A stretch of DNA of 64,000 bases from Bacteroides uniformis (GCA_963641445.1 CAVIBR010000001.1:244920-308919); one strand, 5' to 3'; shown: positions 11,986 to 59,089, counted from the stretch's first letter. Program-made: numbers and translations. Notes: generated by a model from the sequence alone, not told the origin.

Positions 11986-11989
11986 AAAC

Positions 11990-13362: not shown

Positions 13363-13378
13363 GATTTATTTGATTAGC

Positions 13379-22217: not shown

Positions 22218-22336
22218 ATTTTTCCCTCCTGCATTCATCTATTTTTATATATGAAATAAAAACAAGTAAATTGATTTTAAAATATAAAGTAAGCGCTTTT
22301 AATTGCAATAACAATCGCTAAATATTGCAAAAACAA

Positions 22337-23125: not shown

Positions 23126-23369
23126 AAATTTTCTCCGTATTTAATTATTGATTAAAATATAAAGTCAAAAAGAATAAAATGCAATATTAATAAAGCTATA
23201 TTGCAAAAATAGTTAAATATTAATGTAACTTTTCACTAATTCTATGACTGAAAATTAATGTAAGCGTTATCAAAAAACAAAATATGCAAACATATAGATT
23301 AATTATTGCAATTTAAGTATCAAATTTAAGGACTAAAATAATATTTGTTAGCAATAGGAGAAGAAAATT

Positions 23370-24416
23370 ATGAAACTCTCATTTCGCTGGTATGGCTTAA
23401 ATGACTCCATACCACTAGAACACATTCGACAAATTCCGAATATGTCAACAATTGTTACCTCCGTCTATGACAAAAAGGCTGGCGAGGTTTGGGAAGAGTC
23501 CTCTCTTCTTAAATTAAAAGACGCCTGTGAGAAAAACGGTCTTAAGATGGAAGTTATCGAATCCATTCCAGTATCAGAAGATATCAAGATGGGCTCCGCA
23601 AAAAGAGATGAACACATCGAAGCATTCAAAAAGAATCTTGAATTATGTGCAAAAAACGGTGTCAAAGTTGTTTGCTATAACTTCATGCCTGTATTTGATT
23701 GGCTTAGAACCGATATGCATCACGTCTTATTTGATGGCTCAAATGCTCTTTCATATTCCCGTGATGACTTCGATAAGGTCGATCCACATAACCTTCACTT
23801 ACCTGGCTGGGATGAATCATATTCACCAGATGAGCTTCAAAACTTATTAGAGACATATAAACATATTTCTCATGAGCAATTATTTGAGAACCTTGTTTAT
23901 TTCCTTAAACAAATAATGCCAATCTGCGATGAGTACGGTATCAATATGGCCATTCACCCAGACGATCCGCCATGGGATGTTTTCGGTCTTCCAAGAATCA
24001 TTTCAAATGAAGAAGACCTCGATAAGCTCTTTGCAGCCGTTCCAGATATTCATAACGGCTTAACCCTTTGCACTGGCTCATTTGGCGCAGGAAGAAATAA
24101 CGATCTTCCACATATGGCCGCTAAATATGCCAAAGCCGGAAGGATCTACTTCGCTCACTTAAGAAACATCAAATATACCGATGACAAAGATTCCTTCACT
24201 GAAGTTGGACATTTCTCCGGATATGGCTCACTTGATATGGCTCTTATCGTCAAAAATCTCGTTGAAAATGGATTTGACGGATATGTTAGACCAGATCATG
24301 GAAGAAACATCTGGGGCGAAGATCAAAAACCGGGCTATGGCTTATATGATCGTGCCTTAGGATGCGCTTATATCAATGGCTTATTTGAAGCAGTCACACA
24401 TTTCCAAAATAAATAA
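23370..24416 (+). CDS. uxuA: Mannonate dehydratase UxuA
   Basis: N-terminus MKLSFRWYGLNDSIPLEHIRQIP (cf. UxuA MEQTWRWYGPNDPVSL); xylose-isomerase-like TIM barrel length 348 aa. Confidence 0.85.
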   Translation: MKLSFRWYGLNDSIPLEHIRQIPNMSTIVTSVYDKKAGEVWEESSLLKLKDACEKNGLKMEVIESIPVSEDIKMGSAKRDEHIEAFKKNLELCAKNGVKVVCYNFMPVFDWLRTDMHHVLFDGSNALSYSRDDFDKVDPHNLHLPGWDESYSPDELQNLLETYKHISHEQLFENLVYFLKQIMPICDEYGINMAIHPDDPPWDVFGLPRIISNEEDLDKLFAAVPDIHNGLTLCTGSFGAGRNNDLPHMAAKYAKAGRIYFAHLRNIKYTDDKDSFTEVGHFSGYGSLDMALIVKNLVENGFDGYVRPDHGRNIWGEDQKPGYGLYDRALGCAYINGLFEAVTHFQNK

Positions 24417-24435
24417 TTAATAAGGAGTTAAATAA

Positions 24436-25287
24436 ATGGAAAAGAATTTACCTTTATACGTTGATTACACCGATAAGGTCGTAGTTATCACTGGAGCAGG
24501 CGGAGTCCTTTGCTCTGAAATGGCTAGAGCATTTGCTCTTTGTCATGCCAAAATTGCCTTACTTGATTTACATTTAAGCGCAGCTGAAGCAAAAGCCGAA
24601 GAAATCAGAAAACTTGGTGGAAATGCAAAAGGATATGAAGCAAATGTCCTTGATAAGGATTCGCTCGAAAAAGCACATCAACAAATCCTTACTGATTTCG
24701 GCAAATGCGACATCCTCATCAATGGCGCTGGCGGAAACTCTCCAAAAGCTTCCACGACTCAAGAATTCTATGAGCCAAAAGTTTCTGATGAGACAATTTC
24801 CTTCTTCGATTTAAAGAGCGAAGGATTCCAATTCGTTTTCAATCTCAATATCTTAGGAACTCTTCTCCCAACACAAATCTTTGCTGTTGATATGATTGGC
24901 AAAGAAGGATGCTCAATTCTTAACATCTCTTCGATGAATGCCTTCACCCCATTAACGAAGATCCCAGCTTATAGCTCTGCCAAAGCAGGTGTTTCTAATT
25001 TCACAAAATGGTTAGCAACCCACTTTGCAAAAACCGGAATCAGAGTCAATGCAATCGCTCCTGGATTCTTCTCCACAGCCCAAAACGCTGCCTTATTATG
25101 GAACCCAGATGGCACTCCAACAGAAAGAACCCACAAGATTCTTAACAATACCCCAATGGGAAGATTTGGCACACCAGACGAACTCTTAGGCGCAGTCTTA
25201 TTCCTTTCTAATAGCGAAGCTGCTTCCTTCATCACTGGCGTTGTTCTCCCAATCGATGGTGGTTTCAGCGCTTATAGCGGAGTTTGA
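24436..25287 (+). CDS. SDR family oxidoreductase, probable D-mannonate/fructuronate oxidoreductase (short-chain UxuB-like)
   Basis: TGAGGVLC Rossmann motif, catalytic YSSAK; positioned between uxuA and uxaC. Confidence 0.7.
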   Translation: MEKNLPLYVDYTDKVVVITGAGGVLCSEMARAFALCHAKIALLDLHLSAAEAKAEEIRKLGGNAKGYEANVLDKDSLEKAHQQILTDFGKCDILINGAGGNSPKASTTQEFYEPKVSDETISFFDLKSEGFQFVFNLNILGTLLPTQIFAVDMIGKEGCSILNISSMNAFTPLTKIPAYSSAKAGVSNFTKWLATHFAKTGIRVNAIAPGFFSTAQNAALLWNPDGTPTERTHKILNNTPMGRFGTPDELLGAVLFLSNSEAASFITGVVLPIDGGFSAYSGV

Positions 25288-25290
25288 TCT

Positions 25291-26616
25291 ATGGAATTCT
25301 TTAGCAATGATGTTCTCCTTAAAGGGGACGCAAGCAAAGAAATATATAAAGAGATTAAAGACCTTCCAATAATCGATTACCATTGCCATCTTGACCAACA
25401 TGCAATAAAGGTGGATGGAAAATTCGAAGATATCGGTGAACTTTGGCTAGCCGGAGATCACTATAAATGGAGAGCCATGAGAATGGCTGGCATCCCTGAA
25501 GAATATATCACTGGGAACGCTTCCTTCCATGAGAAGTTCCTCAAATACGCTTCGATCATGCCTTTATTGGTTGGAAATCCTCTCTATTACTGGACTCATT
25601 TTGAACTCAAGCAAGTCTTTGGAATCGAAAAAGAACTTAATTCCGAAACTGCCGAAGAGATATATTCCGAAGCAAACAAAGCTTTAAAATCCTTATCTGT
25701 CCAAAAGCTCTTAAAACTCTTCAACGTTGAATTTGTTGCAACCACAAACGATCCAACAGAAGACTTAAAAGATCACGGAATAGTTGGAAATACAAACGTT
25801 ACTCCAACCTTCAGACCTGATAAGCTCTATAACTTTGATTCTAAATATCTTGAAGAATTAGGGAAAGTCGTCGGATATGAATTATCTGACTTGGATCTCT
25901 TAGAAAAAGCCCTTCAAGAAAGACTCGATTTCTTCAAGAGCAAAGGTTGCAAGATCACCGATCACGGATTTAGAAACTTCCCTAAGAAATATGCTTCTTA
26001 TGAAGAAGCTAAATCTTTCTATCTAAGAAGAGATTCTCTTAATGAAGAAGAAAGAGACTCCCTCTTTGGCTATCTTCTTGTCTTCTTGATGAAGGAATAT
26101 AAAAAGAGAAATCTTGTTGTTCAAATGCATTTCTCCGTCACAAGAAACATCAACACCCCAATGTATAAAAAAGTTGGTGTCGATGCAGGATTTGATGTCA
26201 TCTCCGAAGGTGTCAATCTTCAAGATTTGATTAATTTCCTTGATAAATTACCTGATGAAGAAAGACCGATGATCATTCTCTACTCCTTAAACCCTGAGAT
26301 GTTAAGAGAAGTGGCAACAATTACCGGCGCCTTCAGAAATGTTCGTGTCGGAGCGGCTTGGTGGTTCAACGATACTCTCTTAGGGATAAGAAGAAATCTT
26401 GAAATCATCTCTGAATATTCTCTCTTTGGAACAAATCTTGGCATGTTAACTGACTCAAGATCATTCTCATCCTATTCAAGATTCGACTTCTTCAGAAGAA
26501 TCCTTTCCACCTTCTTAGGAGAGAAAGTTGACGCAGGCGAGTATTCCTTAAAAAATGCTATAATGCTCGCGAAGAATATAAGTTATTACAACATTAAGAA
26601 CTTATTTGGAGAATAA
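25291..26616 (+). CDS. uxaC: Glucuronate isomerase UxaC
   Basis: N-terminal region ...LPIIDYHCHLDQH (UxaC DYHCHL motif), 441 aa. Confidence 0.85.
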   Translation: MEFFSNDVLLKGDASKEIYKEIKDLPIIDYHCHLDQHAIKVDGKFEDIGELWLAGDHYKWRAMRMAGIPEEYITGNASFHEKFLKYASIMPLLVGNPLYYWTHFELKQVFGIEKELNSETAEEIYSEANKALKSLSVQKLLKLFNVEFVATTNDPTEDLKDHGIVGNTNVTPTFRPDKLYNFDSKYLEELGKVVGYELSDLDLLEKALQERLDFFKSKGCKITDHGFRNFPKKYASYEEAKSFYLRRDSLNEEERDSLFGYLLVFLMKEYKKRNLVVQMHFSVTRNINTPMYKKVGVDAGFDVISEGVNLQDLINFLDKLPDEERPMIILYSLNPEMLREVATITGAFRNVRVGAAWWFNDTLLGIRRNLEIISEYSLFGTNLGMLTDSRSFSSYSRFDFFRRILSTFLGEKVDAGEYSLKNAIMLAKNISYYNIKNLFGE

Positions 26617-26619
26617 AGT

Positions 26620-27234
26620 ATGGAAAACATATTAGATGAAATTAGAAAATACCGCATCGTTCCGGTCGTGGCAATCAATAAAATTGAAGATGCCATTCCA
26701 ACAATGGAAGCCTTAGTCAAAGGCGGTTTGCCAGTAGCAGAGATCACCTTCCGCACAGCATGCGCAAAAGATGCAATAAAGCTTGCTATTGAGAAATTCC
26801 CTGAGGCGTTAATCGGCGCAGGAACAGTAATCAATGCCAAACAAGCAGAAGAAGCAATCTCTGTCGGAGCAAAATTCATTGTTTCCCCAGGATTATCCTC
26901 TTCAGTATTTGAAGTTTGCAAAGCCCACAACGTTCCTTATCTTCCTGGCTGCGTTACTCCAACAGAAATCATGGAAGCACTTGAACTTGGCTTAACAACT
27001 CTCAAATTCTTCCCTGCATCAAATTACGGTGGATTAAAAACAATCAAAGCCCTTAATGGACCATTCCCACAAATCACCTTTATGCCTACAGGCGGAGTCA
27101 ATGAAGAAAACATTCTTGAATACCTTGCCTATCCCCACATCATTGCCTGTGGAGGTTCATGGATGATGAAAGGAAGCTTCGAAGAAATCGAAGAAAAAAC
27201 CAAAAAAGCCGTTGAGCTTGTAAGAGGAAAATAA
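26620..27234 (+). CDS. eda: 2-dehydro-3-deoxy-phosphogluconate (KDPG) aldolase Eda
   Basis: 204 aa; KDPG/KHG aldolase motifs VVAIN...GLPVAEITFRT...GAGTV...FIVSPG; catalytic Lys region KFFPA. Confidence 0.8.
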   Translation: MENILDEIRKYRIVPVVAINKIEDAIPTMEALVKGGLPVAEITFRTACAKDAIKLAIEKFPEALIGAGTVINAKQAEEAISVGAKFIVSPGLSSSVFEVCKAHNVPYLPGCVTPTEIMEALELGLTTLKFFPASNYGGLKTIKALNGPFPQITFMPTGGVNEENILEYLAYPHIIACGGSWMMKGSFEEIEEKTKKAVELVRGK

Positions 27235-27235
27235 A

Positions 27236-28252
27236 ATGAAAGCAGTTACTTTAGGCGAATTAATGTTACGCCTTCAACCAGACAATTATCTCCGTTTCGT
27301 TCAATGCGACCATCTTGAAGCCACATTCGGCGGAGGAGAAGCAAACGTTGCTGTTTCCTTGGCCAATTATGGCATCGATGCAGCATTTGTTAGCAAACTC
27401 CCATCTCACGAAATCGGTCAAGCCGCTTTAAATTCTTTAAGAAGATATGGTGTTGATACATCAAAGATCGTTCGTGGCGGAGATCGCTTAGGAATCTATT
27501 TCCTTGAAAAAGGCGCTTCCCAAAGGCCTTCAAAGGTTATTTATGATCGTGCTAACAGTGCTTTCGCTCTTTCGAATCCTGACGAATATGATTGGGATAA
27601 AATCTTTGAAGGAGTCAACTGGTTCCATTTCTCTGGCATCACACCAGCATTAGGTGATAATGTCGTTGAAATAACTCGCCAAGCACTCAAAGCTTGCAAG
27701 AAACATGGCGTTACAGTCTCTTGCGATCTTAACTACCGTAGCAAACTTTGGTCTAAGCAAAAAGCCAAAGAAGTCATGAGTGAATTCATGCAATATGTCG
27801 ATGTCCTTATCGGAAACGAAGATGATGCAAACGATGTCTTCGGAATCAAAGCCGAAGCCACTGATACATCTTCTGGAAAGCTCAATAAAGACGGATATGT
27901 CTCAGTTGCAAAACAACTCAAAGACAAATTCGGATTCAAATATGTTTGCATCACGATGAGAACATCAATCTCTGCAACCGACAATAAGTGGTGCGGAATG
28001 ATCTATGATGGCGAAGCACATATGTCAAAAGAATATAACCTTCACATTGTTGATCGTGTTGGTGGGGGAGATTCCTTTGCTGGTGGATTAATCTATGCCT
28101 TATTAAATGATTATCAACCACAAGCCGCTATCGAATTTGCCGTTGCAGCCTCGGCCTTAAAACATTCCATCGAAGGCGATTACAACTTTGTCAGCGTCGA
28201 TGAAGTTAACAAACTCGCCGGTGGAGATGGCTCTGGCCGTGTTCAAAGATAA
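27236..28252 (+). CDS. kdgK: 2-dehydro-3-deoxygluconokinase KdgK (PfkB family)
   Basis: PfkB motifs GGGEANVAVSLA (N-term) and DRVGGGDSFAGGLIYAL (C-term anion hole). Confidence 0.8.
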   Translation: MKAVTLGELMLRLQPDNYLRFVQCDHLEATFGGGEANVAVSLANYGIDAAFVSKLPSHEIGQAALNSLRRYGVDTSKIVRGGDRLGIYFLEKGASQRPSKVIYDRANSAFALSNPDEYDWDKIFEGVNWFHFSGITPALGDNVVEITRQALKACKKHGVTVSCDLNYRSKLWSKQKAKEVMSEFMQYVDVLIGNEDDANDVFGIKAEATDTSSGKLNKDGYVSVAKQLKDKFGFKYVCITMRTSISATDNKWCGMIYDGEAHMSKEYNLHIVDRVGGGDSFAGGLIYALLNDYQPQAAIEFAVAASALKHSIEGDYNFVSVDEVNKLAGGDGSGRVQR

Positions 28253-28276
28253 TTAGTCTTATCCTCCTTTACATAC

Positions 28277-28311
28277 AGCCTTAGGGATTGTGCCTCCTTA
28301 AGGCTTTTTTC
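28277..28311 (+). terminator. Rho-independent terminator after kdgK
   Basis: agcctta-gggattgtgcctcct-taaggct + T7. Confidence 0.7.
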
Positions 28312-28770
28312 TTTATCAAAAAATTGAAATTTCCAAATATTCCCAGCAAAACTCAAATGTTTTTCTTCTTTTAACCTAATGACCGTATTTAGAAAGCGGA
28401 ATATTTAAAATCTAGACGCTTTTCTATAACATTGTTTAAAAAACGCCTTCATTTAAAGGCCAATTGAAAAAATTATGAATAAACGTATATTAATAACAAA
28501 TGCGCAGCAGTCACCCATATTTTTATGTAAATTTAAGAAATATCTATCTTTTGTTAAAGGCAATCATTTTATGTAAGCGATTTCATAAATTCAAAATATA
28601 AAAAGAAGAAATCTTTACAATTTTTCAAATAATTCGACAATTTAGGAATGTTTGATAATCTTTGATTTATGTTTGCAATTTAAAGATTTCCTTAAATAAG
28701 CATTTCGGTAATTTATTACTTTTTTAAGGGTTATTTTTCAAATATATAATAATGACACGGAGGGCAATTA

Positions 28771-31272
28771 ATGAAAAAACAATCCGTAATACTGCTCATA
28801 TCATCTATCTTCTTACTTGGATGTTCGACAAACAATAGTTCTGAATCTTCCATTGATTCTTCTAATGAAACTATTTCCTCGTCAGTCGAAGAAGGCCAAT
28901 CAAGCAATTCCCAGCCTTCTTCAAGTTCTGAAGAAACAAAGAAAAAGGAGTTAACCATTGATAATATCTATAATGATTTCCTTGCTTTAGCAAAGGATGG
29001 AAACTTCACTATCGAATTTAACAAGACCATTAAAGATATCTATACCGATAATTATGTTCTTCAAAATTCATCTTCGACATATTATTTCAAAGGCGAAACT
29101 ATTTATGAAGAAAATAAGATAGGCGTTTATTCTGCAAGAAAAGAAAATAATTCCTATGAATTAGGCTATCTTCTTGAAGGAGAAGACGACGAAGGTTTTT
29201 CCGATAGTTCTCCTTTAGCAGATTTCCATACGATCAATTTATTCTGTTACTTGAATAATCCTAACTACGGTGCAAGCAAAGATGACCTTTCTTTTTCCTC
29301 TTCAGGTGAAGAAATTGTAACTGATTATAATTCATCTTCCCCAAGGAATATGTTTACAATTCTTGCTTTGATGTTTGGCAATTACACCAACGTTTCAACT
29401 GGCTTGGTTAACCATGTTTCAATCAAATATGATGAAGAAAATAATATTGTCGTGGAATTCTCAAAATTAGAAGAAAACACATACACGTATCCATCCAATT
29501 ACGCAAAAGGTGTTATCAAAAATATCAATAAGACAAGTGATGAAACTGCTGAATCCTTCCTAAAAACAATCAAAGGTAAAATAAGTAATAACACTTTCAC
29601 TTATTACAACACTTATAGCATTCGTAACACCTATTTATCTAGTACAACATCAGCTCATCTAGATTATGAAAATGGAACTAGCTCTTACGATTTAGGCACC
29701 TATGAATTAGACTACAATCCTAACAAGATTCATATTAAAAATCCTAATGGAGAAACTTTCATTCATCGCTCAGCTGATGGGGCAGCATATATTCAAGGGA
29801 TAAATGCCCTAAATGAGGTTTATGATGATACATACTATGCTCAAAATTTCTCTAACATGGATTTCGGATACAAAGATTTTGACTTCGAAGGATTTCGTTA
29901 CGACGAAGAAGAGAAAGCATATATCTATTATGGCCTTAATGGAGGAGATTCACTTAATTCAATCACTTATTTAGGAATAAGTTCAATGAAGTTTGATTCC
30001 ATTAAGTTATACGTGGATGAAGAAAGCGAGCAAATTAGCAAAATCATCGCTAGAAGTGCCTCCTTTTTAACTGAATGGTTCCCAAATAAGTATACCTATG
30101 CTTACTATACTTTCACAATTGATCTTGTTGATTATCGCACGATTGGCGAACCTTCAATCTATGATGTAACTTCCTCCACAGCTAAAATCCAATCAGTTTT
30201 CAATAAGATAAACGATTATGAAAATACCTCCTTTAAAACCGTTTCTAGAGAATGGTATGAAGGAAAAGACTCTAAGAACGTTCAGCCTAAGGTAACAACC
30301 TATTACACAAAGGATTATGTATATAAAGAAACAACCAACTACGTTCTTGATGGCAATTCGTATAACCCTGTTACAACTGGAAGAGGCCAATACGCAATTA
30401 AAGATAGCGAAGGAAATGTTATCGGAGTCAAAGAGTTCCGTGTCACAAGCGATGGCATAGTTGAACCTCGTTCTGAAATAATCTATGGCAAAACCCTTAA
30501 AGATTACTGGATTAACATTCAAGCATCTCCACTCGTTTTTGTATTAAACGATAACGTCATTTCTCCAATAAGTGGAATGGACACAAATAAATATAAGGAT
30601 TATCTTCCTATCACCCATTCAAGATTTGAAGCCCAAGAAGGCAGCATGCAAAATGGCGGGGATTATGGCGGAATGACATTCACCCTTAAAAAAGATGGAG
30701 AAGAAGTAACTGATGAAATTAGCGAATTTAACTACACCTATGGCGTCGAAGGAATATTCGAAAGTGATTATTCCGGCAAAGGAGTAATGACATTCACTTA
30801 TTCAACCGACTCTAATCCAATCAAGATATCTGATTCCTTGCTATCTCAACTTGAAAACATGGGAACATTCAAGATTCCAAGTAAGTGGAGCGAATCTCAA
30901 TCAAGCAATATCTATACTCTCTTATCTTCTTTCTATGAAGGAAAGAAAAATAGATATGGCAACGATGTTGATGTGGATAGAGATATTCCATTCTTATTTG
31001 ATGATGATTTAGACTCATCATGGAAATATTCATCTGGGCAATATACCAACACCAAAACGTTAAACATCAATCACTCCGTATCAAGCTTCGATGATGGCGA
31101 TATAAACAACTACAACGCCAAGTACGAAAGCCTCTTAAAAAATGATCCTGATTACACCTATAAAACAGAAAATGGTTTAGGCTATTACATAAACGGCGAT
31201 ATTGTAATTGCCATGACTAATTCTGCTATGGGCGGAATATACTTCTATACCGCAATACCACTATATAATTAA
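28771..31272 (+). CDS. Large surface lipoprotein with Ser-rich linker, hypothetical
   Basis: Signal peptide + lipobox LLGC|S; Ser/Glu-rich low-complexity linker then ~780 aa beta-rich Tyr/Asn/Thr-rich body; RBS GGAGGG. Confidence 0.6.
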   Translation: MKKQSVILLISSIFLLGCSTNNSSESSIDSSNETISSSVEEGQSSNSQPSSSSEETKKKELTIDNIYNDFLALAKDGNFTIEFNKTIKDIYTDNYVLQNSSSTYYFKGETIYEENKIGVYSARKENNSYELGYLLEGEDDEGFSDSSPLADFHTINLFCYLNNPNYGASKDDLSFSSSGEEIVTDYNSSSPRNMFTILALMFGNYTNVSTGLVNHVSIKYDEENNIVVEFSKLEENTYTYPSNYAKGVIKNINKTSDETAESFLKTIKGKISNNTFTYYNTYSIRNTYLSSTTSAHLDYENGTSSYDLGTYELDYNPNKIHIKNPNGETFIHRSADGAAYIQGINALNEVYDDTYYAQNFSNMDFGYKDFDFEGFRYDEEEKAYIYYGLNGGDSLNSITYLGISSMKFDSIKLYVDEESEQISKIIARSASFLTEWFPNKYTYAYYTFTIDLVDYRTIGEPSIYDVTSSTAKIQSVFNKINDYENTSFKTVSREWYEGKDSKNVQPKVTTYYTKDYVYKETTNYVLDGNSYNPVTTGRGQYAIKDSEGNVIGVKEFRVTSDGIVEPRSEIIYGKTLKDYWINIQASPLVFVLNDNVISPISGMDTNKYKDYLPITHSRFEAQEGSMQNGGDYGGMTFTLKKDGEEVTDEISEFNYTYGVEGIFESDYSGKGVMTFTYSTDSNPIKISDSLLSQLENMGTFKIPSKWSESQSSNIYTLLSSFYEGKKNRYGNDVDVDRDIPFLFDDDLDSSWKYSSGQYTNTKTLNINHSVSSFDDGDINNYNAKYESLLKNDPDYTYKTENGLGYYINGDIVIAMTNSAMGGIYFYTAIPLYN

Positions 31273-31286
31273 TGAAAGGAAAAAAT

Positions 31287-33722
31287 ATGAAAAAATCAAA
31301 ATTATTAGTTTTCTCCCTTGCCTCAGTCTTAATGCTTGCTGGCTGTGGAGATAACCAAACCTCATCCTCTACTGAAGGAGCTTCTTCCTCAAACACAAGT
31401 GAAGTAGTTTCTTCCTCCGAAGAATCTTCAACAAGCAGTTCTTCCTCCGAAAGCTCTTCGAGCGAATCTTCTTCTGAAGTAGTAATCGAAACTGCAACAA
31501 TCAAGAAAATCACCAACTATGTTACTGAAGGAACATTAAACGTTACCGAAGGTGACAAAGTTGAATTGAATTCAAAAATCACTTTAACCTTCACCGAAGC
31601 CGTTTCAGACAAGGAATATCAAATTCTTGTTAACCAAACAATCGCCGATATGGAATGGGCCGAAGATAACCTTTCTTGCTTCTACACCTTAAATGCAAGC
31701 AAAGACGAAGAAATCTCAATTGCCCTCATAGAAAAGAATCCTACTTCCGAAAATGGACAGACAATCACCTTCGAACAAGGCGAACACTACAAAGTCCTTG
31801 GCATCGTCTCCGGCCAAAAATATGAGCCACTTGATGACTATTCTGAAGAATTAGAAGATTGGGTCACGGTCTCGATCGATTTTGCAATCATCGTCGATGA
31901 AGGATATATTCTTGCTAAACCAATTTTAACTGTTGATGGGATTGACCAATCTCTTTCTAAAAATGATCAAGGTCTCTATTCAATTGGTAAATGGGATTTG
32001 ACTGGCGCAGGCGCTTTGACAATCAATGTTAACAAAGCAGTTGAACACACGATCACATATACTGGTGCAGAAAATCTTGATACAGCGGCATCTAACATCC
32101 CAACAACCTTCATGGGTGGAGATACGATCACCTTCAAGTTCATTGCCAAGGGGGGATTCTCTGTCACGGCCGTTTCTGTCCAACCATATGATAATTCTTA
32201 CTATTATCAAAAAGATTATTCCAACTACACAATCACTCTTCCAAATGAAGATGTGCAAATTGCCATAACTACAGTCGCATCATATGCAATTAAATTGTCT
32301 TCAACCGAGCATCTTTCTAATATCGGATTCTATTCAACGGCTGAGTATGGTTCCGATTCCGAAGGCAATACCGCTCTTAAATTATCAGACGAAATAACAA
32401 CTGCTCCTTCTAACCAACGTTTCTATGTCGCATTCAACGTTGAAGATGGGTACAAAGTTAGTGAAATTGTTGGTGCAGAAGTTGCAGGACTTGCCGAAGG
32501 CGCTCAATCATGGTGTGGTTCAACGGACGGCAGAATCGTCTTCAATTGCACTCTCTATGGTGAAACGGAATTAAAACCAGTCTTTGTCACAAAGAAGAGC
32601 GTTACATTAGACTCTTCAACCGACTCTGATAAAGTCTCTCTTGTCTTTACTGGTGATGTTAACACGTTCTTCCCTGAAGATGACGTTAAATTCAACTTCT
32701 TACTTGAAGACACAAAAAATACAAGAATTGGCCAAGTCTATTATTGCTATACTGATGAAAATGGTGAAGCAGTTGAAAAAGAAGTCAACTATTCAAAATA
32801 CTACAGCAGTTATACCTTTGTTATGCCAAATGCAGACGTTACCATCAAAGCAGAAGTTATCGATATTGTTAAAACAACAGTATCTTATTCAAATACGGCT
32901 GGAAGCCTTGTTGGATCAGTCAATATAGTTGGTGCAACAAGCGGAACCAAACTAGATGACTCAACAAGCACATCAGACTCATTCGAAGAAAAAGAATCTC
33001 TTAATATTACAATCAAAGCCGGGCCTGAACATTTTAAGAAGGTCGCGGCAAACCTTGTTACCGCTACTGAAACAACTGCTATTGAATTAACACTCAACAT
33101 TGCAAAAGGAACCTACACCGGTAGCGTTTCCGTTCCAGTTGGTGGAGCAACAATTCAAATCGTTGAAGGCGAATATGCCACTGTTAGAACATTAACCGCT
33201 TCTGAAACAAGCACGATTGAATATTACGAAAGCACTGATGTATCATCCAAAGTTAATATATTAGGAAATCTCTACGACATGGATGTCTTCTATTTCGTTG
33301 TTAAGGATACACCAGCTGAAGGATATTCACTTTCCGTTTCCGTTAAGATTGATGGAGAAGAAGTACCATCCTTAAGTACAGTCACAATCGGTGATGAAAC
33401 TGCTTATAAGGTTATCGTTTCTGGCAATGTTGAAATCTCTGTTGAACAAGTTCAAGCCGTTTCATTCGGTGTCTCTGGCGCTGACTACGAAGGAGATGGA
33501 TCTGATATTTTCATTGACTTTGATACAAATGATTATATCCAAGTTAACAATGGAACAATCAAATACGGCACAAGATTCTATTTAGATGATCCTGATTATG
33601 GTAGAGAAATAGAAACAATAACAATTGGCGGAGAAACCGTTAAGCCTGACTATATTGATGGATTCCATGGCGTTTATACAGCTACAGGTGATGTAGTTAT
33701 CACTCTCATCGAAGCGTATTAA
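31287..33722 (+). CDS. Large surface lipoprotein with poly-Ser linker, hypothetical
   Basis: Start at MKKSKLL (RBS GAAAGGA); lipobox LAGC|G; SSSEESSTSSSSSESSSSESSSE linker; repeated T/V/G-rich beta modules. Confidence 0.6.
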   Translation: MKKSKLLVFSLASVLMLAGCGDNQTSSSTEGASSSNTSEVVSSSEESSTSSSSSESSSSESSSEVVIETATIKKITNYVTEGTLNVTEGDKVELNSKITLTFTEAVSDKEYQILVNQTIADMEWAEDNLSCFYTLNASKDEEISIALIEKNPTSENGQTITFEQGEHYKVLGIVSGQKYEPLDDYSEELEDWVTVSIDFAIIVDEGYILAKPILTVDGIDQSLSKNDQGLYSIGKWDLTGAGALTINVNKAVEHTITYTGAENLDTAASNIPTTFMGGDTITFKFIAKGGFSVTAVSVQPYDNSYYYQKDYSNYTITLPNEDVQIAITTVASYAIKLSSTEHLSNIGFYSTAEYGSDSEGNTALKLSDEITTAPSNQRFYVAFNVEDGYKVSEIVGAEVAGLAEGAQSWCGSTDGRIVFNCTLYGETELKPVFVTKKSVTLDSSTDSDKVSLVFTGDVNTFFPEDDVKFNFLLEDTKNTRIGQVYYCYTDENGEAVEKEVNYSKYYSSYTFVMPNADVTIKAEVIDIVKTTVSYSNTAGSLVGSVNIVGATSGTKLDDSTSTSDSFEEKESLNITIKAGPEHFKKVAANLVTATETTAIELTLNIAKGTYTGSVSVPVGGATIQIVEGEYATVRTLTASETSTIEYYESTDVSSKVNILGNLYDMDVFYFVVKDTPAEGYSLSVSVKIDGEEVPSLSTVTIGDETAYKVIVSGNVEISVEQVQAVSFGVSGADYEGDGSDIFIDFDTNDYIQVNNGTIKYGTRFYLDDPDYGREIETITIGGETVKPDYIDGFHGVYTATGDVVITLIEAY

Positions 33723-33931
33723 TATCAACTCTCAGCAGAAAACGAAAGCTGTCCATTAAGGATGGCTTTTTTCTTTTATCGCAAATCTGATTGAGTTTTA
33801 CCTATGATTTTTCAATTTTTAATTGTTTTCCTTTACTAATAATTTGGAGATGGTTCATTATTCAAACTTGTTTTTAGAACTGCCTTAACGTAAAATTAAT
33901 TAAATTTTAGAAAAAGTAAAGGACAATAATT

Positions 33932-34711
33932 ATGAAAAAGACTCTAAAAATACTTTCAATAGTCCCTTTATTCGTTTTATGTTCGTGTGGAAATGAAACG
34001 AATTCAAGCGAGGCAAATGTATTAAACGAGGCTGATGCTAAAGCACAAGTCGCTTCAATGAAAGCGGAAGTTGAAAAAGAAGACTTCAAAGTGCCAACGT
34101 CTGGCCAAATATTAACCGATCTTGTTACCTCAAGCGCTTCACTCTCTTTTAGTGTGACTTCAGATGTTAGATTCAACACGGAAGCAGGTTCAAGATACTT
34201 TTATTCAAATTCAAATTTACTTGGAACAACGATTGTTTGCTATTATGAAAAAGACGGGAAGTATTATGGATATGTTTCTTCTGCTTATGGTGAAGATAAA
34301 ACAGAATTAACCGAGGATGAATTCACCAACACTTTCGAAAGCACTATTACAGAATCCGGCATTGATGCAACATCATTGAAAACGAATGTTGTTGAAGGAT
34401 TAGATACCATTACTAATTTGTATGATAACTTTGAAAACACTTCTAGCTCAGTGGATGTTACTACTGATCTTGAAGTTACTTTCACTAAAATCAACGAATC
34501 ATCGTTTAAAGTTGAGGCTAACGGTAAAGTAAAACAATCTTCATTGGGGACGGCAGACGCTGTTATCAAAATCGAATATGAAAACTACCTTCCTAAGAGC
34601 AGGTTTATGGATGTTACTGCTACCGAATCCGGGCAAGAAGTTAAAACTAAAACAACTCAAACTTACACCTGGGGCAGTGTTGAGTACATCTATCCTGAAA
34701 TAAACAAATAA
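33932..34711 (+). CDS. Lipoprotein, member 1 of tandem paralog family (ends ...YTWGSVEYIYPE)
   Basis: Lipobox VLCS|C; shares VRFNTEAGSRYFY and C-terminal Y-x-WGSVEYIYPE with next two genes. Confidence 0.6.
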   Translation: MKKTLKILSIVPLFVLCSCGNETNSSEANVLNEADAKAQVASMKAEVEKEDFKVPTSGQILTDLVTSSASLSFSVTSDVRFNTEAGSRYFYSNSNLLGTTIVCYYEKDGKYYGYVSSAYGEDKTELTEDEFTNTFESTITESGIDATSLKTNVVEGLDTITNLYDNFENTSSSVDVTTDLEVTFTKINESSFKVEANGKVKQSSLGTADAVIKIEYENYLPKSRFMDVTATESGQEVKTKTTQTYTWGSVEYIYPEINK

Positions 34712-34713
34712 GG

Positions 34714-34745
34714 GCAGCAGCCATTAATTGGCTGCTTTTTATTTT
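34714..34745 (+). terminator. Rho-independent terminator (duplicated with the one at 35745)
   Basis: gcagcagcca-ttaat-tggctgc + T5. Confidence 0.7.
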
Positions 34746-34901
34746 GCTAAATCGATTGAGATTTATGGGCGATTTTTGAATTTTCTACAAATATATTTCG
34801 CTTGATGATCCTAAATAGTTTATTTTTCAAACTTGTTTTCATAATGATTGAGACGTAGAATTAACTAAATTTTAGATAAAAAACAAAGGTAATTAGTAAT
34901 T

Positions 34902-35723
34902 ATGAAAAAGGCTCTTAAAACACTCTCGATGATTCCTCTATTCGTTTTAGGCTCATGTGGGAATGAAACGAAAATATTAAATGAGGCTGAAGCTAAAGAC
35001 CAAATCGCTTCAATGAAAGCAGAGATTCAAAAAGATGATTTTGCAATCCCTAGTTTAGGAATGGTGAAAACTACTATGGTATCAAATGAGCAAAACTCAT
35101 CTTTTACTATCTCTCTAGACGTTAGATTTAATACCAACGTTGGCTCTAGATATGTTTATTGCAATATAACTTCGGAGAATTCTAGCAACAATTCTATTGC
35201 ATCTTCCGTGATTAATTATAGTAGTGATTCAGATGAAGTTGCTTGCTTGTACGAAAAAGATGGAAAGTATTTTGATTACGGCAAAAGAGGCTCAAAGGTA
35301 ACGTTTTCTGAAATAAAAGAAGAAGCGGAATTTAAAACGCTTTTCGATAATAAACTTATCCAAATTAGTGCAGATTCAGCTACGCTAAAAACTAGTTTCG
35401 TAACAGTTTTAGATAGAATTTGCGAAACATATGATTACACTGATGGATCTTCTAATGCAGAAAACAATATCGGTGTTGCCTATGAAATAACATTTACAAA
35501 AATAAATGCGTTTTCATTTAAATTTGAATCTAAAGCTAAAGCAACTGATTCCGCTAGCATGCTTAAAAATTCTGAAACGACAATGATATTTGAGAATTAT
35601 TTGCCTAAAAGTTCTTATTCTACTAGTTTATTAGGTGTTTCTGGCACTGAAATTACGAGCTCATCTTCTCGAACTTATGCCTGGGGCAGTGTTGAATACA
35701 TCTATCCTGAAGCAAGCAAGTAG
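34902..35723 (+). CDS. Lipoprotein, member 2 of tandem paralog family
   Basis: Lipobox VLGS|C; N-terminus near-identical to member 1 (ILNEAEAKDQIASMKAEIQK vs VLNEADAKAQVASMKAEVEK); 3' end retains remnant of member-1 terminus. Confidence 0.6.
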   Translation: MKKALKTLSMIPLFVLGSCGNETKILNEAEAKDQIASMKAEIQKDDFAIPSLGMVKTTMVSNEQNSSFTISLDVRFNTNVGSRYVYCNITSENSSNNSIASSVINYSSDSDEVACLYEKDGKYFDYGKRGSKVTFSEIKEEAEFKTLFDNKLIQISADSATLKTSFVTVLDRICETYDYTDGSSNAENNIGVAYEITFTKINAFSFKFESKAKATDSASMLKNSETTMIFENYLPKSSYSTSLLGVSGTEITSSSSRTYAWGSVEYIYPEASK

Positions 35724-35744
35724 CATTTGAAATAAACAAATAAG

Positions 35745-35772
35745 GGCAGCAGCCACTAATTTGGCTGTTTTT
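35745..35772 (+). terminator. Rho-independent terminator
   Basis: cagcca-ctaattt-ggctg + T5; sequence homologous to terminator at 34714. Confidence 0.6.
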
Positions 35773-35904
35773 AATACAAAAGAAAATATCCTTTTAATGA
35801 CTGTTACTTTGAGAATCGTATTTATTCCAATTTTTTCTCATAGTATTTCACATTGACAACAATACCTTTTTTAAGTAAAATTTAAGCGCAAAGGGGATTA
35901 CAAA

Positions 35905-36675
35905 ATGAAAAAGAAGACTAAGTTATTGGCTTTGATGCCGCTATTATTTTGCTTATCAAGTTGTGATAAACAGCTTGGCGCAAAGGAAGCCGTTAAATTT
36001 GTTGATGCTATAGGAGAAGAGCTCTGCAAAGATGAGTCTTTCTCTCCGACCGTTGGAACAGTTCATTCACATAAAACAAGGTTGGAAGATGGCTTAACAA
36101 CCACAACGGAAACTGAAGTACGATTCAACGCTGAAGAAGGCTCTAGATATTTTTACGAGAAGAGCGTTGTTACTAGTCAATCTCAATCTGAGAGCGAATT
36201 CTATTTATATGAGAAAGACGATAAATATTATAGAGTCGATTTAGATGGCGAAGAAAAAAGTTCTAAAGAATACACAACCGAAAAAGAATTTGCAAAAGAT
36301 TTCAATAGCGCATTGAGATCTAACGAATTAAATTCTGAAGCGATTAATTATAAAGCTAGATGGTATCTTTTTTACATATCATATTGCTTTGATAACAAAG
36401 ATAAAGAGGAAAAACTATCCTTAAAACTTGACCAAAAACTTGTTAAATTTAACGATTATTCATTTAAATTTGATCAAACAACTACTTATTACGACTCTAA
36501 TTCAGAAGAAAAAAATAGAGCAGAATTTCATGTTGAATTTAAGGATAAATTTCCCATAACTTTAAATACTGTTTCTCCAATGACGGATACTGATGGCAAA
36601 ATGATAACGCTATCTGAAGACGCTACTTATGCTTGGGGTAAGACCACGTATTTATATCCGACAATTACCATATGA
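35905..36675 (+). CDS. Lipoprotein, divergent member 3 of paralog family
   Basis: Lipobox CLSS|C; conserved VRFNAEEGSRYFY and C-terminal YAWGKTTYLYP. Confidence 0.55.
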   Translation: MKKKTKLLALMPLLFCLSSCDKQLGAKEAVKFVDAIGEELCKDESFSPTVGTVHSHKTRLEDGLTTTTETEVRFNAEEGSRYFYEKSVVTSQSQSESEFYLYEKDDKYYRVDLDGEEKSSKEYTTEKEFAKDFNSALRSNELNSEAINYKARWYLFYISYCFDNKDKEEKLSLKLDQKLVKFNDYSFKFDQTTTYYDSNSEEKNRAEFHVEFKDKFPITLNTVSPMTDTDGKMITLSEDATYAWGKTTYLYPTITI

Positions 36676-36706
36676 GGAGAAACATCATTATCGAAAGGGG
36701 ATAACT

Positions 36707-38065
36707 ATGAAAGAAACTATAAAATTTATTCTTAAAGGACTTAGTAAAAACGTTTTCTCATTGATACTTTCAGCAATTCTTTTAACTGCATCAACCTTTT
36801 CAATCAGTTCATCCTTTGTGTTAAAAGAATACAACCTAACAGAATTTGTCTTAAGAAACAGAACAGTTGGAGATGAATATGCTTATTTGCGATTTAATAT
36901 GCACAAAGAGGATGGCGAGTACAAACAACGTCAATTTGATGATGAATCGCTCGAAAAAATAAGGGAATATACTTCAGGCAGTGCCGTTGAATGTTACGAC
37001 TTTTCTTATCAGAAACCAATAAATTTAACGCCTGCAAGAGGAAAGGGGTATAAAGATATTAATAATTTCCTTTATAAGCACAATTGCGTAATGAAACTTG
37101 ATCAAGATACAGGTGAAGAAAAAGCACAAATCCATAGATGTGAAAGATTATCTAGCCAAACTCCATGCAGATTGCCAAACAAAAGTGACGAAATAGCTAT
37201 AAACGCTTTATCTGCTTATACAATGCTTGCCTATGGCATTGTTACTGAACTCCTTCCGGATTCTGAATTACCGGCAGTAGTTTACAAGCCAAAGAGCCTT
37301 GATGAATTAATAGGCTTCAAACTATATAACGGATTAACAATAACTGGAATCTATTCTTCCAATGATGGGTATTCTGAACTTTTTGAACCATATCTTCTTT
37401 CTGGGTTAGATGAAAAAGAAGATTACATAACAAAATACTATTTGTATGGAGGCTTTTCTTCAGCTGGTGCCGCATATGTAAGCAAAGAATTCATAGAAGA
37501 AAAAGGTCTAACGACTCCGAAGTTTGTTTTTGCTAAATTAAGTGGTAATTATCGTTCAGATTTAAATTTTGTTAAATCTTTTAATGAAGAAAATGGCTCT
37601 TTTCTCTTTCCTCTCAACAAATATACCGGCTACGCTAGTTATTTTGATACCGTACCTATCTATTATGATTGCTACCCGGTAACTACAGATCAGTTTTGGA
37701 GAAACTACTGGTATTGCACTATCGCGCCTATAGTACTTAGTTTTGCATTTGCTTTGTTCCATTTCTTCAGAATTTTCAAGAAAGTAGATGAAGAAAAAGT
37801 TATTGTTGAAATAGATGTAAAAAAACGTTGTTTGAATGCAATTTCCCAAATGCTTGTTCCGACTTTGCTTTCGTGGGCGTTTGCATTGATTGCAATACAA
37901 ATCATTTTGACCGTGTTTAATGCCCATTTTGGAGTAGCAATGTTTATCATAACTCCAGGCATTGCATTTGCTGCTTTAGCTGTTTCCTTCATTGAATGTG
38001 GAATAACAATGCTTTGCGGGCTTGGCATTTCTAAGATCCCTTTCAAAAAGAAGAAAGAGTCCTAA
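36707..38065 (+). CDS. FtsX-like/MacB-type permease-fold membrane protein (N-terminal TM, large extracytoplasmic domain, 3 C-terminal TMs), orphan
   Basis: Start ATG 36707 (RBS AAAGGGG); topology 1 TM + ~300 aa ECD + 3 TM at C-terminus characteristic of FtsX-like ABC permeases; no cognate ATPase nearby. Confidence 0.45.
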   Translation: MKETIKFILKGLSKNVFSLILSAILLTASTFSISSSFVLKEYNLTEFVLRNRTVGDEYAYLRFNMHKEDGEYKQRQFDDESLEKIREYTSGSAVECYDFSYQKPINLTPARGKGYKDINNFLYKHNCVMKLDQDTGEEKAQIHRCERLSSQTPCRLPNKSDEIAINALSAYTMLAYGIVTELLPDSELPAVVYKPKSLDELIGFKLYNGLTITGIYSSNDGYSELFEPYLLSGLDEKEDYITKYYLYGGFSSAGAAYVSKEFIEEKGLTTPKFVFAKLSGNYRSDLNFVKSFNEENGSFLFPLNKYTGYASYFDTVPIYYDCYPVTTDQFWRNYWYCTIAPIVLSFAFALFHFFRIFKKVDEEKVIVEIDVKKRCLNAISQMLVPTLLSWAFALIAIQIILTVFNAHFGVAMFIITPGIAFAALAVSFIECGITMLCGLGISKIPFKKKKES

Positions 38066-40416: not shown

Positions 40417-41814
40417 ATGAAACGTAAAAGGAAGAAAGTTTTAATTATTTCTTTATTTGTTTTTGGCGCTTTGATTTTATTGCCTGCGTCCTTTTTAGGA
40501 GTAGTCGCAGGTATGGCAAATACAAGACATATCGTTATTGACTCAAATCCGAAAATGAGATCTAGCAATAGATCTGGTTTAGTCCATGCAATCGGAAATT
40601 CTTTATACGATAAAGATGGAAATAGATTGGTTCTTCAAGGAGTTAATGCTGGAAACCTTTTGATTTACGAAGGTTGGATATCTCCATTTTCCGTTGGTGA
40701 ATCTAGAGATGAATATGGGAATCTCATTCTTGATAAAGACGGCTTGACAACATATCCAGAAATGCCAATGGAAGAAGCGTTAGCTGGTTTCAATTCCAAT
40801 CCAAATTTGAATGATTCCCAAAGAAAAGAGTTAATTGATATTTACCGTTCAAATTGGTTTTCCGAAGTAGATTTCAAAAACGTTAAAGAATTAGGATTAA
40901 ACACCATACGCCTCCCATTCTATTGGCGTGATATTCTTGATGAAAAGGATGGTGTATTCACCCGCAAAAGTGAAGAAGATGCGTTCTCTTATATCGATTC
41001 ATTTATAACTAATTGCAAGAAATACGATCTTTATTGCGTTCTCGATCTTCATGGCGCGCCCGGTTCCCAAAATGGTTATGAACATTGTGGCGATATGACT
41101 AAAGCTGATCTTTGGACGAATGAAACATATCAAGATGCAACAGTAGATATTTGGAAATTCATCGCAGAGCACTATACCTATACCAATTCAGAATTAGGCA
41201 AGAGTATTGCAACATACGATCTTCTAAATGAACCATGTGCTTATTATGATGATAAGAACGCAGGAACAGTTCAAAAAGTATGTGCGCCAGTTTTTGACAA
41301 ACTATATCAAGCAATTCGTGATGTAGGAGATGAACACGTCATCAATATTGAAGGAGTTTGGTCTTATGATTGTTTCTCCAACCCAGATGATTATGGTTGG
41401 GAAAGCATTCAATACGACACTCATCTATATAATTGGAAACACGAAGTAATCCCTTATTGGCTATTTAACTCCTATCATGAAATTCATAACTGGGGTCATG
41501 AATATGATGTACCTTATTCTGTTTCGGAATTCACTTTCTTTGATGATGCAAACGCTTGGCAAAGTCAACTAGATATGTTTGAAAGAAGAGGCTATTCTTG
41601 GACGATGTGGACATATAAAGCGGCAGTTACCGGTTGGTGGGATACGACCTGGTCGCTATATACTCAATGCCTTGATTTATGGGATAACAAAGTGAAGGCA
41701 AATCTTGCAACATCAACCTTTGATGAGCTTAAAACTGCATTTGAAGAAACTAATACATCAAACTGCATCCAATCTAAAGCATATGAATATGTGTCAAATT
41801 ACTTAAACAAGTAA
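40417..41814 (+). CDS. Glycoside hydrolase family 5, exo-1,3-beta-glucanase-like (signal-anchored)
   Basis: NTIRLPFYW, LDLHGAPGSQNGYEHCGD (cf. fungal Exg1 HGAPGSQNGFDNSG), catalytic acid/base in LLNEP; N-terminal signal anchor. Confidence 0.75.
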   Translation: MKRKRKKVLIISLFVFGALILLPASFLGVVAGMANTRHIVIDSNPKMRSSNRSGLVHAIGNSLYDKDGNRLVLQGVNAGNLLIYEGWISPFSVGESRDEYGNLILDKDGLTTYPEMPMEEALAGFNSNPNLNDSQRKELIDIYRSNWFSEVDFKNVKELGLNTIRLPFYWRDILDEKDGVFTRKSEEDAFSYIDSFITNCKKYDLYCVLDLHGAPGSQNGYEHCGDMTKADLWTNETYQDATVDIWKFIAEHYTYTNSELGKSIATYDLLNEPCAYYDDKNAGTVQKVCAPVFDKLYQAIRDVGDEHVINIEGVWSYDCFSNPDDYGWESIQYDTHLYNWKHEVIPYWLFNSYHEIHNWGHEYDVPYSVSEFTFFDDANAWQSQLDMFERRGYSWTMWTYKAAVTGWWDTTWSLYTQCLDLWDNKVKANLATSTFDELKTAFEETNTSNCIQSKAYEYVSNYLNK

Positions 41815-51119: not shown

Positions 51120-51129
51120 ATTTCTCTCC

Positions 51130-51157
51130 AAAAAGGGAAAGCCCAAGAGAATATCTC
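51130..51157 (-). terminator. Intra-operon attenuating terminator after BMP lipoprotein gene (minus strand)
   Basis: gcccaagag-aatatct-cccttgggc; T-run on minus strand side. Confidence 0.5.
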
Positions 51158-51177
51158 CCTTGGGCTAATAAGCAAAA

Positions 51178-52419: not shown

Positions 52420-52511
52420 GTGTTCTCCTATTCTTGTCCGTAACCCTTGTTTGAGAATTGGAAAGAAAGCAAGTCTAACAAATGAAAAAGCTAGATACTG
52501 TTAAGATTTTG

Positions 52512-52580: not shown

Positions 52581-52746
52581 GTCTTTCGACAACATATTTT
52601 GAAACATATTCAGTCAATATAAAAGAGGAAATTACTCTGAAAACGGTTTCAAAAAAAATTTACAATCTTTTTCTAGCCAAATTGTAAAGACGGGTATAAC
52701 CTTAAAAAATAGAGCGATGTTTCTATAAATCCATAGGAGAACATTA

Positions 52747-59075: not shown

Positions 59076-59089
59076 AGGAGCTATAGATT

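Follow-up and report, generated by a model that had tools for sequence, protein, structure and literature searches.

A 64,000-nucleotide (nt) stretch of DNA deposited as Bacteroides uniformis (GCA_963641445.1 CAVIBR010000001.1:244920-308919) carries an array of three lipoprotein genes, here called g1, g2 and g3; the whole stretch is referred to as the window, and positions are counted from its first letter. On balance, we favor the view that the array is an old set of diverged paralogues, two of which recombine through their 3' ends, and that the encoded lipoproteins are probably accessories of a type VII ATP-binding cassette (ABC) machine. The three genes are the following:

33932-34711, plus strand: g1, an open reading frame (ORF) for a 259-amino-acid (aa) lipoprotein with lipobox LCSC; the fastest-evolving of the three copies
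34902-35723, plus strand: g2, an ORF for a 273-aa lipoprotein with lipobox LGSC and a Ser/Asn-rich insertion relative to g1
35905-36675, plus strand: g3, an ORF for a 256-aa lipoprotein with lipobox LSSC; the most diverged paralogue, with no terminator after it

The genes are arranged head to tail on one strand. Each N terminus consists of MKK, a hydrophobic stretch and the lipobox, which fits the consensus [LVI][ASTVIGC][GAS]C; the combination of signal peptide and lipobox that marks substrates of Lgt and LspA is present in all three proteins, which we infer to carry acyl groups that anchor them to the external side of the membrane. By tblastn, homology is full length in every pair: E=1e-59 and 41-45% protein identity for g1/g2, E=3e-23 and 30% for g2/g3, and E=1e-17 and 27% for g1/g3. 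The same search did not find a fourth copy of the lipoprotein gene in the window. A preliminary description, made from the sequence alone, had proposed three paralogous lipoprotein genes at this place, and the exact ORFs, lipoboxes and full-length homology agree with it. It had also described N-terminal, central and C-terminal blocks common to all three. The blocks VRFN..GSRY.Y, YEKD.KY and Y.WG...Y.YP are found in the array proteins, so that the central and C-terminal parts of that claim hold; the N-terminal NEAxAK block is restricted to g1 and g2. At the nucleotide level the g1 and g2 units form a mosaic. Identity is about 80-87% over three stretches, namely the first 76 nt (83%), a 67-nt block at the N terminus and the final ~100 nt with the terminator, and falls to about 47% across the gene body.

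To place the duplications in time, we compared the array with related loci taken from GTDB genomes, NCBI, ENA and Logan, designated here by L numbers. Whole-gene synonymous divergence (dS) was 1.47 for g1/g2, 1.7 for g2/g3 and 3.1 for g1/g3. In a neighbor-joining tree of all copies, g1, g2 and g3 formed separate clades, each with orthologues in other metagenome-assembled genomes (MAGs). One relative, L003, carries orthologues of g2 (63%) and g3 (64%), and its flanking genes are 71-75% identical to those of the window, with dS of 1.4-1.6. Because L003 holds these orthologues while its flanks are so diverged, both duplications are older than the L003 split. Together, these comparisons indicate that the array is made of old, diverged paralogues and that both duplications predate the split from distant relatives. 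The recent expansion suggested in the preliminary description does not fit a g1/g2 dS of 1.47, gene bodies only ~47% identical or orthologues in distant MAGs.

The array and its expression signals are embedded among the following features:

28771-33722, plus strand: two large lipoprotein genes, big1 and big2 (833 aa and 816 aa, with a 1-nt overlap), directly upstream of the array
33744-33770, plus strand: intrinsic terminator of the upstream large lipoprotein gene (-13.6 kcal/mol, z=-3.6)
33861-33911, plus strand: g1 conserved upstream block, TTCAAACTTGTTTT ... ACGTAAAATTAATTAAATTTTAGA, also found upstream of g1 in L007 and L008
33868-33896, plus strand: g1 promoter-like site TTGTTT-17-TAAAAT, inside the g1 upstream block
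34716-34736, plus strand: g1 intrinsic terminator, GCAGCAGCCA-TTAAT-TGGCTGCT followed by a U run (-16 kcal/mol)
34826-34876, plus strand: g2 conserved upstream block, with the motif as for g1, kept ahead of the L003 g2 orthologue
34833-34861, plus strand: g2 promoter-like site TTGTTT-17-TAGAAT, inside the g2 upstream block
35748-35769, plus strand: g2 intrinsic terminator, a near-copy of the g1 terminator (-11 kcal/mol)
35853-35881, plus strand: g3 promoter-like site TTGACA-17-TAAAAT (11/12 matches), kept in L007, L008 and L015
36707-38065, plus strand: a 452-aa homologue of MacB/FtsX-type (type VII) ABC permeases that lacks an ATPase domain, starting 31 nt after g3

Upstream of g1 and g2 lies common sequence comprising GATTGAG(T/A)TTTA, TTCAAACTTGTTTT and the 24-nt motif ACGTA(A/G)AATTAA(T/C)TAAATTTTAGA. 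The motif occurs only twice in the 64 kb, ahead of g1 and ahead of g2, where none would be expected by chance, in agreement with the shared upstream sequence noted in the preliminary description. The blocks can be read as a promoter with a weak -35 element, TTGTTT-17-TA(A/G)AAT. The terminators of g1 and g2 are likewise related, although not identical as had been stated: over 46 nt they match at 87%, the loop having a substitution and an extra nucleotide and the stem a single altered base. The terminator at 33744-33770 sets g1 apart from the genes before it as a transcription unit of its own. Hence, g1 and g2 each form a separate unit of a single gene, with a conserved block ahead of it and an intrinsic terminator of its own behind it. 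The proposal that promoters and terminators were duplicated along with the genes therefore applies to these two units and not to g3, from which both the g1/g2 upstream block and the terminator are missing. Instead, g3 has a strong promoter-like site of its own (TTGACA-17-TAAAAT) and runs on into the permease gene across a 31-nt gap that holds an AAAGGGG ribosome-binding site and no terminator, and the two are probably cotranscribed. The shared blocks are also conserved between lineages. The promoter block is kept ahead of the L003 g2 orthologue and of g1 in L008; the g1 terminator is kept in L007, L008 and L015 and after the position-1 gene of L003. This distribution points to constraint as what holds the shared noncoding blocks, which are hence no sign of recency.

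The 3' ends of g1 and g2 contain a further repeat, of which one unit lies outside the g2 coding sequence:

35728-35744, plus strand: second unit of an old ~20-nt tandem 3'-end repeat, TGAAATAAACAAATAA, in the g2 3' untranslated region, 4 nt past the g2 stop

In L007, L008, L015 and L003, the g1-type 3' end reads ...CCTGAA-ACAAGCAAATAG-CATT-TGAAATAAACAAATAA and is followed by the terminator; the layout of g2 is identical. The ancestral 3' end accordingly held two similar ~20-nt units, E-[TA]-S-K-stop and E-I-N-K-stop. Window g1 carries a derived 20-nt deletion between TGAA repeats that removed one unit, and its ORF now ends EINK because the deletion took the ancestral stop region. The preliminary description had seen in g2 a fossil of the g1 stop region lying inside the 3' end of the gene. 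The direction is the reverse, since it is window g1 that carries the derived deletion, and TGAAATAAACAAATAA lies past the g2 stop. Other g1 alleles, from the 90% cluster, end in ETSK, EADK or ETSKQHLK. The last of these (P0083) is a read-through allele in which the second unit supplies a backup stop; judging from its protein sequence, the first stop appears to have changed from TAG to CAG.

Comparison of paralogues with orthologues suggests that this end of the gene is exchanged between copies. Within a single genome, g1 and g2 are separated by 5/88 nt plus one indel over the last ~90 nt, a stretch that runs from TGGGGCAG... and takes in the terminator, whereas the orthologous g1 copies of L007 and L008 differ by 11/88 mismatches plus one indel. 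In the gene body the relation is reversed, with 47% identity between paralogues and 83% between orthologues. Paralogues that are closer than orthologues within one short block are a signature of local gene conversion.

The same block is where g2 has been lost. In L015 (Logan run SRR19415678), which by its dS of 0.08-0.14 from the window is conspecific, the order is big1-big2-g1-g3-permease, without g2. At the junction, the 3' end of g1 and the terminator carry g1-type markers, and g2-type downstream spacer begins right after the terminator stem. The sister lineage L008 also lacks g2, and in both L008 and L015 the g1-g3 spacer is collinear with the g2-g3 spacer of the window. Because g2 is ancient, its absence reflects deletion by unequal recombination within the shared 3' block, and the copy-number polymorphism is the loss of an old copy, not a new gain. 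Among more distant relatives, L004, L009, L001 and L005 have one family copy, L002 has at least two and L003 has three. Together, these data indicate that the ~100-nt 3' end and terminator common to g1 and g2 undergo homologous exchange, which homogenizes the copies and deleted g2 in a conspecific strain. In this respect the preliminary description was right to expect a substrate for recombination and copy-number variation. The locus offers a clean natural example of a short repeat across a 3' end and terminator that drives local gene conversion and, between strains of one species, the precise loss of a whole gene unit.

Traces of exchange elsewhere in g1 are fainter. Of eight g1 substitutions that are derived in the window, six carry the base found in g2 (p about 0.02), but they are interspersed with unconverted sites and amount to a weak hint of conversion. 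A contiguous tract in the 5' part of g1 was considered and rejected: the window-derived changes at 34026 and 34053 agree with g2, but they are separated by five g1/g2 differences that were not converted. Separately, synonymous divergence from L007, a second MAG (GCA_963653265.1), is a mosaic along 27236-38065, at 0.006-0.018 over g1-g3 compared with 0.067 in big1 and 0.122 in kdgK; for the genes neighboring the g1-g3 segment, dS is 0.05-0.12. The low values over the array suggest a recent recombinational exchange or sweep across it.

Evidence of recombination invites comparison with antigenic variation, for which the preliminary description had seen a potential substrate here. In that scenario, which we consider unlikely, the array would be a recent unequal-crossover expansion of a surface-antigen family, and its copies would serve recombinational antigenic variation like the variable lipoproteins of Mycoplasma. 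Tandem paralogues with conserved 5' ends (76 nt at 83%), a shared and homogenized 3' block, the presence or absence of g2 among conspecific strains and a g1 C terminus that differs among strains would all be expected from it, as would the g2-like substitutions in g1 just described. So would the changes in g1 between the window and L007, where true nonsynonymous and synonymous differences stand at 10:3, compared with 34:95 for the flanking genes (Fisher p=5e-4). These changes cluster in the three helices of an AlphaFold 2 (AF2) model. The face-value ratio of nonsynonymous to synonymous rates (dN/dS) for this pair, 1.1, was set aside, as 2 of its 12 nonsynonymous changes stem from the 20-nt deletion and other comparisons give 0.19-0.31. 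Indeed, g1 has dN/dS of 0.30 against L015 and 0.19 against L008, compared with 0.06-0.16 for its neighbors; against L003, values of 0.28 for g2 and 0.21 for g3 denote purifying selection. These ratios describe a g1 that is less constrained than its neighbors and perhaps episodically selected, rather than a hypervariable antigen. Age is a second objection, since g1 and g2 are separated by a dS of 1.47, and each copy has orthologues in distant MAGs; the three-gene arrangement, moreover, is stable in at least two MAGs. The third concerns the switching device. Within the array we found no tandem or simple repeats beyond a 15-nt ATTCAA x2.5, no homopolymer tracts and no inverted repeats flanking the g1-g3 promoters or otherwise marking an invertible promoter, and no recombinase was present among the genes of the neighborhood. 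The array holds three complete genes with their own expression signals and so no silent donor cassettes, and the interspersed g2-like changes in g1 argue against a conversion tract in the gene body.

The Mycoplasma families Vlp, Vsp and Vsa are variable lipoprotein multigene families. The array resembles them in being a cluster of lipoprotein paralogues whose 5' ends and signal peptides are conserved while their mature parts have diverged, and in differing in copy number between strains through recombination between repeats. Unlike them, it has no promoter homopolymer, invertase, silent cassettes or internal coding tandem repeats; its copies are ancient (dS 1.5-3) with orthologues in other lineages, and there is no sequence similarity between the two. 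Low-GC bacteria rich in lipoproteins commonly carry tandem families of surface lipoproteins, and the existence of the array is in itself unsurprising.

The family to which the three proteins belong is narrow in its distribution. A word-indexed search of 5.8 billion proteins returned only eight clusters, and an exhaustive profile search of 1.84 billion representatives gave 64 matches at E<=1e-3, nearly all of 225-300 aa. The array thus defines an unnamed lipoprotein family of about 64 clusters, counted at 50% identity. Among 58 members, Leu16 and Cys19 of the lipobox are conserved at 90% or more. Aromatic and charged side chains (R, Y, W, E and K) are frequent at the conserved positions of the family. 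Scans against Pfam and NCBIfam with the three proteins, with 10 members and with 58 members gave nothing consistent. For LolA, LolB, LppX_LprAFG, MucB_RseB and related Pfam models, no match was obtained in the 10 or 58 members even at E values up to 5 or 1, and searches of PDB sequences with two family profiles returned noise only. Relatives of the family were not found in a JGI metagenome scan, nor were homologues in phage and plasmid collections; Foldseek against viral structures was uninformative. When the 58-member alignment served as the profile, a word-indexed search brought in no further true members. Its hit P0062, a high-GC repeat protein, was judged a false positive, and for this reason the MacB genes in its vicinity in L014 were not counted as evidence. 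To judge from these searches, the three genes represent an uncharacterized, narrowly distributed family with no sequence relative in Pfam, NCBIfam or the PDB.

We modeled g1 with AF2 (predicted local distance difference test score [pLDDT] 84, predicted template modeling score 0.78). The model contains 11 strands and 3 helices, in the order N-terminal helix, six strands, two helices and five long strands. Its best Foldseek matches in the PDB were 3bk5 (annotated as a lipoprotein-sorting protein), LolB (9tpm, 8cm1 and 8orn_B), RseB and 4egd, at probabilities of 0.87-0.99; the Staphylococcus aureus lipoprotein SAOUHSC_02783 was also among the best. We take the LolA-like half-barrel that these matches suggest as a lead, not a result.

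The product of the gene that follows g3 could be assigned more firmly. In its AF2 model (pLDDT 75), a helix at residues 16-40 is followed by a mixed alpha/beta domain (58-314) and by helices at 327-362, 371-408 and 417-442. This is the type VII layout of one transmembrane helix, a large extracytoplasmic domain and three C-terminal transmembrane helices. All 18 PDB matches at E<=1e-3 were MacB-type permeases (probability 0.99-1.00), among them 5xu1_M/Spr0695, LolE/C, MacB, HrtB and YtrF. At the sequence level, the homologues P0074, P0076 and P0077 carry a fused PF00005 (ABC_tran) domain, and the latter two also PF02687 (FtsX). The permease is kept by purifying selection (dN/dS 0.09) even though the ATPase domain is missing, which poses a minor puzzle for the biology of type VII ABC systems. 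The domain is also absent from the permeases of L007, L015, L008 and L004. Conversely, the L009 orthologue (8001-10136) is a fusion of ATPase and permease, 711 aa long, in which the Walker A, signature and Walker B motifs are all intact. The L009 locus reads kdgK, one family lipoprotein, a 447-aa Peptidase_C92 protein, the fusion and tdk, with the C92 gene 3 nt upstream of the fusion; L004 has the same kdgK-to-tdk module minus the ATPase domain. These conserved neighbors, a MacB-type permease and, in relatives, a C92 amidase-like protein, provide a testable lead to the function of the family.

L003 presents a different arrangement. Its region 9431-13563 holds the C92 gene, a second permease paralogue (43% identical to the window permease), the g3 orthologue and a truncated permease remnant. 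The remnant is the true orthologue, with 73% identity over residues 259-446 only. The locus is a hotspot of gain, loss and rearrangement.

In the accessory model that we favor, the lipoproteins would adopt an 11-stranded curved sheet with three helices, roughly a half-barrel of the LolA/LolB/GerS type, and would bind a hydrophobic ligand or a partner protein as accessory components of a type VII ABC machine. In relatives, this machine would consist of the lipoprotein, the C92 papain-like amidase and the ATPase-permease fusion. g1 and g2 may be dispensable, more weakly constrained spare paralogues with altered specificity. The simplest history would have three steps. A single lipoprotein gene would have stood beside a C92-plus-type-VII-ABC module; this gene would next have undergone two duplications, while the pair of large lipoprotein genes came to be inserted upstream of it; the last step would have been the loss of the ATPase domain and, in the lineage of the window, also of the C92 gene.

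Several observations weigh against this model. The fold match is weak, with TM-scores of 0.20-0.33, root mean square deviations above 10 Å and a best E value of 9e-4, and no profile ties the family to LolA, LolB or LppX. No gene for a MacB-type ATPase was found in the window, where the sole ABC ATPase is part of a Bmp-type nucleoside transporter operon. The C92 gene, retained in L008 and L003, is missing from the window. Furthermore, the linkage of lipoprotein and permease is confined to one syntenic locus of one lineage and could reflect inherited gene order instead of function; the family members of L001, L005 and L013 stand alone in unrelated contexts. Within the array, only g3 is physically coupled to the permease.

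Four known systems help to place the proposed machine. LolA and LolB with LolCDE, the latter a type VII ABC transporter, carry out lipoprotein trafficking in Gram-negative bacteria. What recalls them in the array is the g1 model, which has 11 strands and 3 helices, as in the LolA/LolB half-barrel, and whose best, if weak, matches are LolB and a protein annotated for lipoprotein sorting; the neighboring permease has a model that matches LolC/LolE and MacB. The array differs in that TM-scores reach only 0.2-0.33 with no Pfam LolA or LolB match, and in that the array proteins are themselves lipoproteins of another sequence family. The host, moreover, has Gram-positive-type gene signals and no evident outer membrane, and the permease has no ATPase.

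A second parallel is GerS of Clostridioides difficile, which two preprints describe as a LolA-like lipoprotein and allosteric activator of the amidase CwlD (bioRxiv 10.1101/2025.01.13.632879, 10.1101/2021.06.21.449279). As they present it, GerS is a Bacillota lipoprotein with a LolA-like fold that works as a protein cofactor rather than a carrier. In L009, L004, L008 and L003, the family lipoprotein adjoins an extracytoplasmic amidase-like Peptidase_C92 protein, and GerS-CwlD offers a precedent for such a pairing of a LolA-like lipoprotein and an amidase. However, CwlD is not a papain-like C92 enzyme, the window has no C92 gene, and GerS is not among the top 50 structural matches of g1.

The two remaining systems resemble the locus in gene content. 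FtsEX-type ABC systems control cell wall hydrolases such as PcsB, CwlO, RipC and EnvC, and in the ancestral-like module of L009 the gene for a type VII ABC permease similarly neighbors that for an extracytoplasmic enzyme of papain-like/NlpC-P60-like type. In contrast to FtsEX, the module also has a lipoprotein, the window permease is closer to MacB, LolE and Spr0695 than to FtsX, and the window has neither enzyme nor ATPase. Mycobacterial LprG is a lipid-binding lipoprotein co-operonic with the transporter Rv1410c. This pairing of a membrane-anchored half-barrel lipoprotein with a membrane transporter in one operon recalls g3 and the permease, but Rv1410c is a transporter of the major facilitator superfamily and not of the type VII ABC class, the sequences are unrelated, and the Pfam model LppX_LprAFG gave no match.

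A more ambitious version of the accessory model is speculative, and we hold it to be rather improbable. In this version, the lipoprotein (LolA/GerS-like), the C92 papain-like amidase and the MacB-type ABC machine would form an undescribed three-part envelope module of wall-poor or monoderm gut Bacillota. Here it would have lost its ATPase domain and amidase and multiplied its lipoprotein, with g1 under episodic diversifying selection and the terminator-embedded repeat serving as a device of copy gain and loss.

The surroundings of the array suggest another partner for the lipoproteins. They might be nutrient- or glycan-binding surface proteins that work with neighboring carbohydrate-use genes (the hexuronate operon, glycoside hydrolase [GH] genes of families GH2, GH3 and GH5, and the large lipoproteins) and not with the permease; we regard this, too, as unlikely. 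The array does have the uxuA-uxuB-uxaC-eda-kdgK operon on one side and a GH5 cellulase gene on the other, and glycoside hydrolase genes are numerous in the window. This position is kept in L004, L009, L003, L007, L008 and L015, and the aromatic and charged character of the conserved residues also counts in favor of this view. However, the proteins show no similarity to solute-binding or carbohydrate-binding families, terminators split the array from the upstream genes, and members in L001, L005 and L013 occur in unrelated contexts. MacB-type (type VII ABC) permeases are not known to act as importers, which also speaks against a nutrient-binding role.

It is less probable still that g1 and g2 are redundant and drifting toward loss, with g3 and the permease as the only working unit. 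The natural dispensability of g2 (L015 and L008), the relaxed constraint and 3'-end deletion of g1, and the loss of the C92 gene and ATPase domain from the locus are what such drift would produce. Nevertheless, in all genomes where g1 and g2 occur the genes are intact, their dN/dS lies well below 1 over longer distances (g2, 0.28 against L003; g1, 0.19 against L008), and their promoter block and terminator are conserved across species. Lastly, an assembly error that made three copies out of one gene is refuted as an explanation, and nothing was found in its favor: an independent Logan assembly (L006, SRR13434599) is 100% identical to the window across 12.6 kb including the array, L007, from another sample, has the same three genes in the same arrangement, and copies sharing only 27-45% protein identity are too diverged for assembler collapse or expansion.

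Together with g1-g3, big1 and big2 make up five consecutive lipoprotein genes. Both large lipoproteins have Ser-rich linkers after the lipobox and no Pfam match; their orthologues (70-98%) are present in L002, L003, L007, L008 and L015 and absent in L004 and L009. The frame from kdgK to tdk is kept in L004, L009, L003 and L007, and L015 has the same order from the kdgK end through tdk. The window is chromosomal; it has genes for sugar catabolism, glycoside hydrolases, glutamine synthetase III, Tex, tdk and gpsA, and 33-41% GC. Strong Shine-Dalgarno sites, sigma-70-type promoters, intrinsic terminators, a purine riboswitch and DegV are Bacillota-like signs. They fit a host that is a low-GC, Bacillota-like gut bacterium rich in lipoproteins and known only from metagenome assemblies; a Mollicutes/Erysipelotrichia-like placement is plausible.

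Further from the array, the following features were observed. The region 20304-28252 holds, on the minus strand, a GH2 (beta-glucuronidase-like) gene and an AraC-type regulator gene, and after them the uxuA-uxuB-uxaC-eda-kdgK hexuronate operon, directly upstream of the lipoprotein cluster; the GH5 cellulase gene is at 40417-41814. In the terminal region, 58494-64000, a run of ORFs of 193, 365 and 221 aa has no match in Pfam, and the 447-aa product encoded after them shows a weak SusE/SusF-like domain. This region also includes at least two further lipoprotein genes (59090-60187 and 62262 to the window end). A purine riboswitch at 52500-52595 on the minus strand (Rfam RF00167, 52.8 bits) is located upstream of transporter genes at 47382-52419 on the same strand. 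These encode a Bmp/PnrA-type lipoprotein, a double-ATPase protein and two permeases, and they probably constitute a purine-regulated nucleoside ABC importer.

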